From: a virus
Strand: one strand, 5' to 3'
Length of the DNA: 45,752 nucleotides
Virus record (IMG/VR): IMGVR_UViG_3300030613_000004
Shown here: piece after piece, positions 1 through 9,003 of the stretch
Position numbering within the stretch: the stretch's first letter is position 1
How the letters are laid out: each line of letters opens with the position of its first letter
Position numbers and translations under genes: made by a program
The notes under the pieces: generated by a model
Database searches by the model: none
What the model was told of the DNA's origin: nothing
The model's input: the letters and a program-made list of their open reading frames with translations, nothing else

Positions 1-127
1 TTCCAGGGCTCCTTACTGCCTCTAAAGGACACGATTTCGCTGTCGTCGTGGATACGCTGGCCGACATCGGGTTCGGCCTGGCGTGGCGCATACTCGACTC
101 TCAATACTTCGGAGTCCCACAGAGGCG
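1..127. repeat. Terminal direct repeat, copy 1 (identical to 45626..45752); circular-assembly overlap
   Basis: Bases 1-127 match the last 127 bases exactly. The repeat lies inside an ORF that continues in frame across the junction. Confidence 0.95.
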
Positions 128-818
128 CCGCCGTGTCTACATTGTCGGACATCTTGGAGCCCCATGCCCACCCGAAATACTCTTTGAGCCCGAAGGCGGC
201 GGCGGGGATACTCCGGCGGGCGGAAAGGCGGGGGAGAGCGTTGCCCACGCACTTAGAAGCAGCCCTCGTGGCGTTGACGAACACACCGGCACAACCTACA
301 TCGCCGAAGTCTGCCCAGTCTTACGGGCTGGCAAGAACCGAACGGGTGGGGATAGACCCCCAGGAACAGATGTCGATACCTGCGAAAGCCTCATCGCCCA
401 GCCACTGCGCTCCAACCGCTGGGGAGGGAGCGACAGCCACGGAGACGAGGGGAATGTCGTTTGCGCCCATGCACTCAGCGCCAGTGCCAACGCCGGTCTC
501 TCCCACCGAGAGGACAGCGGCAACTATGTGTGTGCGCCGGCTGACCCCAACGGAATGCGAGCGCCTACAGAGCTTCCCCGATGGCTGGACCCACACACAC
601 GGGAAGGCGATGGCATGAAAGATGATGTTCTCGTGCAAGAGCCAAGCGGGATATGGCGTCCAATCAAGGAGAGCGATTGGCAGCACCTTGAGCCATGTCC
701 ACGATGTCCCGATGGTAGGCGGTACGCCGCCCTCGGAGATGCCGTCACGGTGAACGTGATCCAGTGGATCGGAGCCAGGTTGCTGAAAGCGCATGAGGCA
801 GCGCCATGCTACAGGTAA
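1..818 (+). CDS. DNA (cytosine-5)-methyltransferase, C-terminal part; 1..127 duplicates 45626..45752
   Basis: Frame of ORF 48..818. QRRRRVYIVG (motif VIII-like) at ~120-150 and PDGRRYAALGDAVTVNVIQWIG (motif X-like) at 708-773. Stop TAA 816-818. The motif IX block is in another frame (see findings). Confidence 0.75.
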   Translation, partial: PGLLTASKGHDFAVVVDTLADIGFGLAWRILDSQYFGVPQRRRRVYIVGHLGAPCPPEILFEPEGGGGDTPAGGKAGESVAHALRSSPRGVDEHTGTTYIAEVCPVLRAGKNRTGGDRPPGTDVDTCESLIAQPLRSNRWGGSDSHGDEGNVVCAHALSASANAGLSHREDSGNYVCAPADPNGMRAPTELPRWLDPHTREGDGMKDDVLVQEPSGIWRPIKESDWQHLEPCPRCPDGRRYAALGDAVTVNVIQWIGARLLKAHEAAPCYR

Positions 819-5058: not shown

Positions 5059-5345
5059 CTGATGCGATCACAGAGGCACAGGCGGCGCTGGAGGAGGCAC
5101 TGGGCCTAGCTAGATACCGTGGGGCAGACGCGCTCGATGCACTGCCACTTGCCCGCAAGCTGGCGCTGGTGGTACACGACGCCTGCGCTGAGGCCAGCAC
5201 CTGTAACGAGCGGCCGGAGCGGTTCTTCGACCCCTGCGTCCACAACGAAGGGATAGAGCCGGGGACGCGCGGCACCCGTATCTGCCGGCTGGCTATCCGC
5301 GAGCGGCTGCTAGCGCCAGGCGAGGCCAGACATCGTGCGCCGTAG
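5055..5345 (+). CDS. hypothetical protein
   Basis: ATG 5055 follows GAGGAGGAG (5041-5049). It converges on the recombinase 3' end and overlaps it by 36 nt. Confidence 0.45.
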   Translation: MTDAITEAQAALEEALGLARYRGADALDALPLARKLALVVHDACAEASTCNERPERFFDPCVHNEGIEPGTRGTRICRLAIRERLLAPGEARHRAP

Positions 5346-6116
5346 CCGCTTGGTGGTTAGCTTGCCACGTGCCGCCATCAGGCAGTCCGCCACCATCTGC
5401 CCCTGCTCCATGACGGTGGACTCCCCGTTGATGTACCTGGCAGTGGTATCCACGCGACAGTGCCCGAGGAGCTGCATCAGGCTGATGACATCGGCTCCGT
5501 TCTCGTGCATGGCGGTCGCGTAGGCGTGTCTCAGCATGTGTGGGCTAACGTGAAACCCCAACCGAGAGTCCAGCGCCCGGAGCCGGTCGCGGACCTGTTG
5601 GGTGCTCAGGCTGAAGACAGCCGCTCGGCCACCCTCTGCGCCTGCTTCTCCGTGTCGAAGAACCCCAGGCTGCCACCGGGGAACACCGCCCGCCATCCCC
5701 AAGACGTGCGGATCGCCGCGCATATCGTCGTGGGTGCCCCTAGAGGGCTCTGTGGTGGCGCTGGCGTGGCCTTGACCTTCGCTGGTGATGTCGGAGCCGT
5801 CGTTCTTTTCATCACAGATTCCCCCAGACTCGCTTTCTCGCTGCGCCTTCCATGACGCCAGCGCCATTGTAGCGGGTCGCCCGATGGGGCACACCCGCGT
5901 CTTGCGCCCCTTCCCTGTCACCCGGATGGTGCCCGCCTCCAAGTCTACGCAGTCCCACGTTAGCCCCACGAGTTCAGCCACACGACAGCCCGAACCGTAG
6001 CAGACTTCACAGAATACCCGCGTCTCGCCCGTGGCGACTTCGAGGAGCCGGCGCACGTCGTCGAGAGAGAGGTAACGCCGGGAGCGGTGTTGGTGGTAAG
6101 CCGAGAGTTGTTTCAC
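5310..6116 (-). CDS. Xer-like tyrosine recombinase: catalytic domain only, with a ~70-aa insertion
   Basis: GSGCRVAELVGLTWDCVDLEAGTIRVTGKGRKTRVCPIG is the Arg-containing Xer-like block. SPHMLRHAYAT...LLGHCRVDTTARYI supplies H-x-x-R, H and Tyr. There is no SAM-like core-binding domain before the catalytic domain. Confidence 0.8.
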   Translation of the reverse strand: MKQLSAYHQHRSRRYLSLDDVRRLLEVATGETRVFCEVCYGSGCRVAELVGLTWDCVDLEAGTIRVTGKGRKTRVCPIGRPATMALASWKAQRESESGGICDEKNDGSDITSEGQGHASATTEPSRGTHDDMRGDPHVLGMAGGVPRWQPGVLRHGEAGAEGGRAAVFSLSTQQVRDRLRALDSRLGFHVSPHMLRHAYATAMHENGADVISLMQLLGHCRVDTTARYINGESTVMEQGQMVADCLMAARGKLTTKRLRRTMSGLAWR

Positions 6117-7011: not shown

Positions 7012-7188
7012 CTAGTAGTCTGATTCCTTCTCGCCCATGTCATGGACGATTCTCGTGAGTTCCTTTGCGAGCTCAGCGATGTCGGCAAACGGATTGTAGT
7101 TGTTTGCGACTCTGTAGAGGGTGGACCGATATTCGCGGGCCATCTTCTCCAGGTGACCCGCCATGTCCTTTGCAGTCTGTGGTTTCAT
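7012..7188 (-). CDS. hypothetical 58-aa protein (below the ORF-track cutoff)
   Basis: Minus strand reads AGGAGAAGAACG-ATG. Translation MKPQTAKDMAGHLEKMAREYRSTLYRVANNYNPFADIAELAKELTRIVHDMGEKESDY. It fills the gap in the leftward cassette. Confidence 0.5.
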   Translation of the reverse strand: MKPQTAKDMAGHLEKMAREYRSTLYRVANNYNPFADIAELAKELTRIVHDMGEKESDY

Positions 7189-7755: not shown

Positions 7756-7785
7756 TTGTTGGCTTATTCCCCCTTGTGGTACACT
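7756..7785 (+). promoter_or_regulatory. Promoter-like element abutting the terS-like start (leaderless geometry)
   Basis: TTGTTG (7756-7761), then TGgTACACT (extended -10, hexamer 7780-7785). The ATG at 7792 begins 7 nt after the hexamer. Confidence 0.4.
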
Positions 7786-7791
7786 CTGCCC

Positions 7792-8223
7792 ATGACCACC
7801 GACTTGCAGCCCCAGCCCGATAGCCTCGCCCTAGACCCGAAGCTTGAACAGGCCGCGAAAGTGATTGCATGGGGCGGCACTAGACAGCGCGCAGCCCAGG
7901 TTGCCGACTGCTCGCAACGCTACCTGTACTACCAGCTCGCTAATAACGAGCCCTTCCAGCAACGTATCGCTGAACTCCAGGACGGCGAAACTTCCCGCCT
8001 CACTCGCATCGCCAGAGGCAAGGGCGGCATCGCTCTCTCCCTCCTCGTCGGCATCGCTAAGGGCCACATCCAAGCTAACCCTGAACGCCTACGCGCTATC
8101 TTCCGCCTCCTCGATTACTCCCTCGGTTCCCCTTCCCAGGCTGGCGCTAACCTCGCCGCTGAAGTCCAGGGCGCAGACGGTAGCATCATCCGCGTCATGG
8201 TAGGCCATAGGCCTAAGACGTAG
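7792..8223 (+). CDS. HTH protein, putative terminase small subunit
   Basis: 143 aa. TRQRAAQVADCSQRYLYYQL is HTH-like. It is the first gene of the late block, upstream of terL. The call rests on position and size only. Confidence 0.45.
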   Translation: MTTDLQPQPDSLALDPKLEQAAKVIAWGGTRQRAAQVADCSQRYLYYQLANNEPFQQRIAELQDGETSRLTRIARGKGGIALSLLVGIAKGHIQANPERLRAIFRLLDYSLGSPSQAGANLAAEVQGADGSIIRVMVGHRPKT

Positions 8224-8520: not shown

Positions 8521-9003
8521 ATGCTAGAGACGGACCTAGGCTGGGCAGCGGGCTTCATTGATGGAGAAGGCAGTATTTCCATCTTTCGCTGCAATGGCAA
8601 GACTTGGCGGTCGGCGGACAAGTATCGACTGGAACTAGAGGTCACCCAATGCGACACGTTACCGCTGGAGCGGTTAAAGGAAATTCTCGGTGGGTACATC
8701 GAGCCTCGTCGACAGCGGTTAAACCCAAACTGGAGTCCGGCGTGGCGCTGGAAGCTAAGGGGTTGGACAACTATCCCAGTGCTGCAACTGCTGATGCCGT
8801 ATCTGGTGGTAAAGCGGCCTCAGGCTGAGTTGGCTCTCAAGTTCTATCGGAATCGCCAAACAATGGCTGGTGCGGGCGCATGGTACAAGGCTGAGATGGG
8901 AAAACTTAACGTGAGGGGTCGTGCTCGGCACGTCGCGGGATCAGGTGTGGGGGCTACGGTCAGGTTACATCAGCAGGCCGAGTTGAATTTAGAGAGAATC
9001 TGA
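8521..9003 (+). CDS. LAGLIDADG-family homing endonuclease (single motif)
   Basis: LGWAAGFIDGEGSISI near the N-terminus is the LAGLIDADG motif. 160 aa. Free-standing between the terS-like gene and terL. Confidence 0.75.
   Translation: MLETDLGWAAGFIDGEGSISIFRCNGKTWRSADKYRLELEVTQCDTLPLERLKEILGGYIEPRRQRLNPNWSPAWRWKLRGWTTIPVLQLLMPYLVVKRPQAELALKFYRNRQTMAGAGAWYKAEMGKLNVRGRARHVAGSGVGATVRLHQQAELNLERI

Follow-up and report, generated by a model that had tools for sequence, protein, structure and literature searches.

How a phage recombinase gene comes to carry a second open reading frame within an insert in its catalytic domain, and whether that frame is itself a gene, are the questions raised by this locus. 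The window (the entire 45,752-nt stretch of DNA analyzed here) is a complete circular phage genome, with a 127-nt overlap between its ends and genes for a terminase and a major capsid protein. The recombinase gene (6116..5310, minus strand; 268 aa, with matches to PF00589 and phrog_1) closes a short leftward gene run and lies tail to tail with rightward genes. The full explanation that we favor, with a probability of about 0.8, is that a small phage gene was inserted whole into a tolerant loop of the recombinase and left the host frame open.

The recombinase and the insert in its loop

The first-pass annotation of this DNA described a Xer-like recombinase with a split catalytic domain. Profile searches confirmed this description, with the ORF at 6116..5310 matching PF00589 (E = 4e-29) in two stretches. 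All residues of the catalytic set (R45, K69, H193, R196, H219 and Y228) were present; in an alignment of 100 sequences K69 was conserved in at least 90% and the other five residues were invariant. The AF2 model displayed a confident catalytic fold (pLDDT above 90 on the flanks of the loop) and matched XerA (5hxy; E = 2e-10). Judged from its R-K-H-R-H-Y residues and predicted fold, the product is a catalytic-domain-only tyrosine recombinase. The N-terminal core-binding domain PF02899 was absent in a Pfam search, and the protein scored below every NCBIfam cut-off. Assignment to XerC/XerD proper was rejected on the lack of PF02899 and a score of 111 bits against an NCBIfam cut-off of 335. Assignment to the integron integrases was likewise rejected, on a TIGR02249 score of 69 bits against a cut-off of 265 and an insert that is not conserved at the protein level. 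A GTDB scan for the recombinase returned generic Xer-like genes only.

Four members of the recombinase family (P0132, P0135, P0146 and P0147) matched PF22823, the C-terminal domain of MrpR, and this match was graded weak where checked. MrpR is a phage repressor with a recombinase fold, and a regulatory role is conceivable for the recombinase family, though the catalytic residues are intact. Elsewhere in the window, a free-standing LAGLIDADG endonuclease gene (8521-9003, plus strand), a possible intron or homing gene, directly precedes the gene for the terminase large subunit. A DNA methylase gene (1-818, plus strand; PF00145, 398 aa in SRR8538899) spans the origin of the circle; its call differs in the Logan contig L016 (15299-16651), which suggests a frameshift or a variant between samples.

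The length of the loop, measured from the PxGxP motif to the VF motif, was compared across a family of about 30 proteins defined by profile search (E < 1e-60; next matches at 1e-36). The loop spans 85 aa in the window, compared with 21 aa in the 21 of 30 members that have no insert. An insertion of ~70 aa had been proposed, together with a check against related phage recombinases; that check supports the presence of the insertion and puts its size at ~64 aa instead. The inserted segment (approximately 5619..5831, minus strand; recombinase residues ~96-166) is stop-free in the host frame and missing from most relatives. The host frame is predicted to form a disordered loop here, with pLDDT below 50 across most of residues 115-160. 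An assembly indel is unlikely, as contig L016 has an identical recombinase gene and records of the protein come from Logan, ENA and JGI assemblies alike. No Rfam match, tRNA, unusual fold (folding z -0.43) or flanking repeat was found in the insert, and the recombinase protein matched no intein family. Splicing itself aside, these searches argue that the insert is neither an intron nor an intein.

Selection was assessed by comparing the window with L015, the sole close relative with the same insert. Over recombinase codons 1-78 this one sequence pair gave a dN/dS of 0.27 (P = 3e-6), a value in keeping with selection on the recombinase after the insertion. The part 3' of the loop gave a higher value (0.56), and the same part is recombinant in L015. 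That higher value would suit a recombinase that is dead or split, with a frame left open by accident; in synonymous resampling of the cargo, moreover, the host frame remained open by chance at 0.28 in the window and 0.17 in L015, which is 17-28% for a sense cargo. The corresponding chance was 0.24 in L178 and 0.014 in L018, two relatives with other cargos in the loop. L017 and L018 came from a DNA scan that needs no open frame; most insert-bearing members came from full-length proteins, a bias towards open frames. The low chance for L018, combined with its discovery by a frame-independent scan, is reasonable evidence for maintenance of an open host frame. Set against this value, the complete catalytic set, the constraint upstream of the loop, the identity of independent assemblies and the lack of Rfam, folding or repeat signals, a dead or split recombinase, an intron or an assembly artefact is highly improbable.

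An open +1 frame with its own putative start site

Within the insert the +1 frame is open from 5815 and encodes a 68-aa protein (P0122; 5606..5812, minus strand), with an ATG at 5812 and a TGA at 5608-5606. The first-pass annotation had located this ORF at 5815..5606 and remarked that it ends where the main-frame homology resumes; both statements agree with our analysis, in which the stop falls three codons into the VFSL motif. The higher third-position GC noted for the alternate frame was also reproduced. Over 5606-5720 a recount gave 32 of 38 codons ending in G or C in the +1 frame, compared with 24 of 38 in the main frame (33/38 and 26/40 in the original count).

In L015 the +1 ORF is open from the same ATG and has no indels besides those of 3 and 6 nt; it terminates at the same alignment column with another stop codon (TAA versus TGA). 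The kept stop is modest evidence, since the host sequence can supply it and L181 has the same TGA. Over nested codons 37-66 the dN/dS for this single pair of sequences was 0.13, with differences at 11 of 20.5 synonymous and 7 of 63.5 non-synonymous sites (Fisher P = 1.2e-4), compared with 4.3 in the recombinase frame over the same bases. This result upholds the earlier suggestion of coding in the alternate frame over the 3' half of the insert; a main-frame insertion conserved at the protein level, which had been named as contrary evidence, was not found. Conservation of the host-frame protein in the second half of the loop is best read as a by-product of selection on the nested frame over those bases. 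The N-terminal tail of the nested protein (5720..5812, minus strand) is Pro/Thr/Ala-rich, predicted to be disordered (pLDDT 51-60) and apparently unconstrained in both frames; codons 1-36 gave a dN/dS of 1.46 in the nested frame and 0.78 in the main frame, again from the one pair. Codon usage in the N-terminal half was closer to that of the host frame (0.30) than to its own (-0.20). Taken together, the comparison points to two open frames under divided selection, which falls on the nested C-terminal domain within the loop and on the recombinase elsewhere.

DNA identity between the window and L015 peaks three times, at a TACAAT block (20/21), at the SD-ATG block (28/30) and over the domain (80%), with 47-57% between. 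The SD-ATG block (5802..5831, minus strand) is flanked by sequence of 47% and 57% identity. Its SD (GGGGGA at 5825-5820 in the window, GGAGGA in L015) lies 7 nt before the ATG (5812-5810), a spacing as in the phage's other genes. The TACAAT block (5862..5882, minus strand; TACAAT at 5871-5866) retains 6/6 third positions versus 36/78 upstream and is also present in L017 and L018. Its core, GCTACAAT, preceded by TG, recurs in intergenic DNA of four relatives. The site lies 60 nt upstream of the nested start and is a possible -10 element of an internal promoter; a promoter scan detected no -35/-10 pair.

Further -10-like sites were observed in the window, with TACAAT at 7098 (minus strand) inside the leftward gene run and TGGTACACT at 7777 (plus strand) just 5' of an ATG near 7792; the latter may be a promoter for a transcript with a short leader or none. 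Three relatives have a conserved element directly after the recombinase stop (L015:4631-4700, L178:1888-1950 and L028:958-1020), and in L025 (4637-4700) it lies 1.3 kb downstream; none follows the window's gene. The element consists of TG-n-TAYAAT, a GCAG...CTGC stem with a variable interior and then CACCGA. It has no Rfam match and resembles a promoter that would drive a small, structured RNA complementary to the convergent genes.

A control on 27 kb of other genes of this phage, read in the alternate frames of the same strand, yielded no ORF of 60 aa or more with an SD-led ATG. This control and the synonymous excess in the C-terminal half indicate that the nested ORF is more than a chance frame; the peptide is missing from a collection of 15 billion proteins. 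On the comparison of the window with L015, we regard the +1-frame ORF as very probably a real nested gene.

The same frame could be entered by programmed recoding, in which a +1 shift, perhaps followed by a shift back, fuses an AP2-like domain to the recombinase. Such a fusion would suit a recombinase without an N-terminal DNA-binding domain, the fold of the nested domain resembles integrase arm-binding domains, and L015 has a run of seven A at the nested start. This run is missing in the window, however, and no slippery heptamer near either boundary is common to both genomes. Entry into the frame is accounted for by the conserved SD and ATG, and exit from it by a stop kept in both genomes; homologues of the nested protein are independent genes, and antisense cargos of the same loop are out of the reach of frameshifting. 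Recoding is thus very unlikely, and the recoded segment and compensating indels raised in the first-pass annotation lose their ground to the conserved start site and the lack of a shared slippery site.

Free-standing homologues and predicted fold of the nested protein

Searches identified four free-standing homologues of the nested protein (P0124, with 48% identity, P0243, P0244 and P0246), 60-104 aa in length and sharing with it both the Pro/Thr/Ala-rich tail and the domain. The three that were checked on DNA sit on short contigs in the company of small genes, where no recombinase is annotated in the vicinity, and all three contain stops in the -1 frame. Because such homologues exist, the nested gene appears to have been captured rather than overprinted; an overprinted gene has no homologue outside the overlap, and here there are four. 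With one edge close to the SD and the other immediately ahead of VF, the insert has the extent of a gene lacking its stop. This extent and the stand-alone homologues argue that the inner gene is the older sequence. A second small gene and overprinting had been offered as one explanation, of which the small gene stands and the overprinting gives way to capture of a whole gene. The nested peptide matched nothing in Pfam, PHROGs, NCBIfam, a PDB sequence search or a tblastn search of cultured phages, and scans of viral contigs with the peptide, its family and P0125 revealed no close relative. A weak match of P0125 to L187/L188 was rejected as an off-frame chance match over another gene. Atlas feature matches were all below 0.9.

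AP2 and arm-binding domains consist of three strands followed by a helix. AF2 predicted this arrangement for residues 32-67 of the nested protein (5612..5719, minus strand; dN/dS 0.13), with strands at 32-36, 39-44 and 47-52, a helix at 55-67 and pLDDT of 79-88; the alternate-frame product is thus modelled as folded and the host-frame product of the insert as disordered. Structural comparison with the GCC-box domain 2gcc gave a Z of 2.6 (rmsd 1.9 over 38 residues), a weak match that tied with dsRBD-like folds, and the match to 7wq5 was equally weak (Z 2.6). Foldseek returned nothing at E ≤ 0.001 for the domain. A profile search with the nested family reached an AP2-repeat protein at E = 2.6e-4; an hhalign match to the AP2 protein P0245 (E = 2.6e-5) is not independent, since P0245 came from the same profile search. 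None of the six nested-family members matched PF00847 or PF14657 at E ≤ 10 in Pfam. The AP2-like motif recognized in the first pass is therefore retained as a resemblance of predicted fold and not as family membership. We describe the nested protein as predicted AP2/arm-binding-like and do not class it as AP2. On balance, the models make it somewhat more likely than not that the protein contacts nucleic acid through this sheet of three strands and serves as a small regulator with no part in recombination.

Alternatively, the protein could be a dedicated partner of the recombinase, either a directionality factor or a detached arm-binding domain, and be embedded for that reason. The domain superposes on part of a phage integrase model over 38 residues with an rmsd of 1.1, a weak match at TM 0.50. 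The host lacks N-terminal binding domains, and nesting couples the inheritance of the two genes. Yet the loop is free of cargo in 21 of 30 relatives and carries an unrelated one in two, the free-standing homologues have no recombinase beside them on their short contigs, and folds of this kind are widespread in small phage proteins. A dedicated partnership is accordingly improbable.

Hidden out-of-frame HNH endonucleases have been described in actinophage DNA methylases, as the ShiLan domain and the Pacc40 gp60 insertion, and no clear SD was reported for ShiLan-type hidden ORFs (PMC11855218). The present layout is as in ShiLan, the family profile reaches the AP2-repeat protein and HNH genes lie near some relatives, features that would also suit what is left of a selfish ShiLan-type homing endonuclease with AP2 and HNH parts. 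Against this, no nuclease family was matched in Pfam, PHROGs or NCBIfam. The protein has 68 aa and an intact start, its C-terminal codons are under purifying selection rather than decay, and its stand-alone homologues, at 60-104 aa, are equally short. The decayed AP2-containing homing endonuclease put forward in the first pass therefore has very little in its favor. Nothing in the sequence at the insert points to homing, recoding or splicing.

The recombinase loop as a probable site of gene gain

Insertion of a whole gene, the reading that we prefer, is paralleled elsewhere in the family. Besides the window, long loops are found in P0002 (L015; 88 aa), L017/L018 (107 aa) and P0133/P0138 (102 aa), and shorter ones in P0134/P0139 (62 aa), P0147 (54 aa) and P0148 (43 aa). 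Insert sequence is common only to the window and L015 and to L179 and L180; the remaining inserts are unrelated. The L017/L018 loop contains an 83-aa ORF antisense to the recombinase (L018:568-819, minus strand), with AGGAG 7 nt before its ATG. A 78-aa antisense ORF with a CxxC motif is present in L178 (1208-1444, minus strand), with AGGAG 10 nt before its ATG and a 3' end that extends past the loop into the hairpin region. Both had the best or near-best codon score of the six frames, the host frame scoring poorly, and both were reported by gene callers on contigs without a recombinase start. No homologues of either were found, and each comes from one sequence type. These two antisense ORFs are probably genes.

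Shorter in-frame inserts, with 22-41 extra aa and no clear nested gene, were seen at L179:1018-1176, L180:389-547, L181:2655-2789 and L182:1349-1450. The L179 and L180 inserts share 76% DNA identity, and that of L181 has a possible 22-codon +1 ORF. The family (P0126-P0152, P0250 and P0251) is mosaic, with different trees for the N- and C-terminal halves. One N-half with its insert is paired with several C-terminal tails, by true recombination or as metagenome chimeras.

Phylogenetic analysis joined the window with L018 and not with L015. This placement would suggest replacement of the cargo, with alternatives kept by AU tests (P = 0.116 and 0.077); the L018 cargo may have taken the place of the window's or have come in on its own. 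The carriers of the window-type cargo number two, and their sisterhood is compatible with the tree (p-AU 0.116).

We propose that a pre-existing gene, comprising SD, ATG and coding sequence, entered a surface loop of a compact tyrosine recombinase, and by its length and phase introduced no stop into the recombinase frame. Ribosomes would translate the recombinase through the insert, which would bulge out unfolded, and other ribosomes would initiate at the internal SD and the ATG at 5812 to make the separate 68-aa protein. The transcript for the nested gene may start from the TACAAT site, and its stop codon would be borrowed from the +1 frame of the host. The loop is probably a repeated landing place, as two other lineages carry unrelated SD-led antisense ORFs and three more carry short inserts. 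Non-homologous gene gain of the ordinary kind, in a region of accessory genes, probably accounts for these insertions; those that closed the recombinase frame would have been lost, and gain would have been helped by how seldom GC-rich genes contain stops when read out of frame. A more elaborate version, which we consider improbable, is that the loop is a cassette slot in the recombinase coding sequence into which whole genes, in either orientation and with expression signals of their own, are taken up and exchanged, perhaps through the activity of the recombinases themselves, while the arm-binding-like cargo acts in trans on the recombinase.

Several known systems resemble this arrangement in part. 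The window shares with ShiLan and Pacc40 a stop-free host frame, a predicted disordered loop, a second ORF in another frame and no signs of an intein or intron; as in Pacc40, the cargo has free-standing homologues. It differs from ShiLan in its 68-aa cargo, which has no HNH match in Pfam, PHROGs or NCBIfam, no His in the window peptide and no sign of homing, in its clear conserved SD and in its tyrosine recombinase host. The loop of the window's family also holds unrelated cargos, two of them on the opposite strand. In synthetic overlapping alternate-frame insertion (OAFI), an inner gene is placed in a flexible region of an outer gene and both are functional (bioRxiv 10.1101/2024.11.07.622342). 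The nested gene likewise occupies an alternate frame inside a flexible region of its outer gene; unlike OAFI, it is natural, not recoded by design, and the functions of its product and of the host's are predictions. Lambda Rz1 in Rz is a nested overprinted gene. In overprinting, as in phiX174 E in D, one frame arises de novo on existing sequence (PMC8227390). The window's gene resembles both in lying wholly within another gene in the +1 frame, and differs in that the inner gene appears to be older and the host loop the new reading.

The nested protein has in common with AP2/ERF (PF00847) and arm-binding domains a W-x-A...LG-x-F-D-T-E-x-x-A pattern and the predicted three strands and helix. Unlike AP2/ERF it has no profile match, its Z of 2.6 ties with dsRBD-like and DUF2188/DUF1508-like folds and its hairpins are shorter. 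With XerC/D and the integron integrases, the latter known for a conserved extra domain near patch III (PMC4889954), the recombinase shares the RKHRHY set, the fold and extra sequence near patch III. It differs from XerC/D in lacking the N-terminal core-binding domain, and its insert differs from the IntI domain in being disordered, variable and missing from most relatives. Within the limits of the library searched, the literature contained no report of this layout for tyrosine recombinases or of an antisense cargo. The new elements are a recombinase host and one loop with three different cargos in both orientations.

The locus would thus be a natural nested overlapping gene that arose by insertion and not by overprinting, with the direction indicated by frame-specific selection and free-standing homologues, and a natural counterpart of the engineered OAFI design. 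It widens a hidden-gene layout described for homing nucleases in 2025 to a non-nuclease cargo, a recombinase host and an apparently antisense cargo, all in one loop. It also marks an insertion-tolerant site in the tyrosine recombinase fold. Annotation misses such genes, which is a reason to translate the long low-complexity loops of phage enzymes in all six frames.
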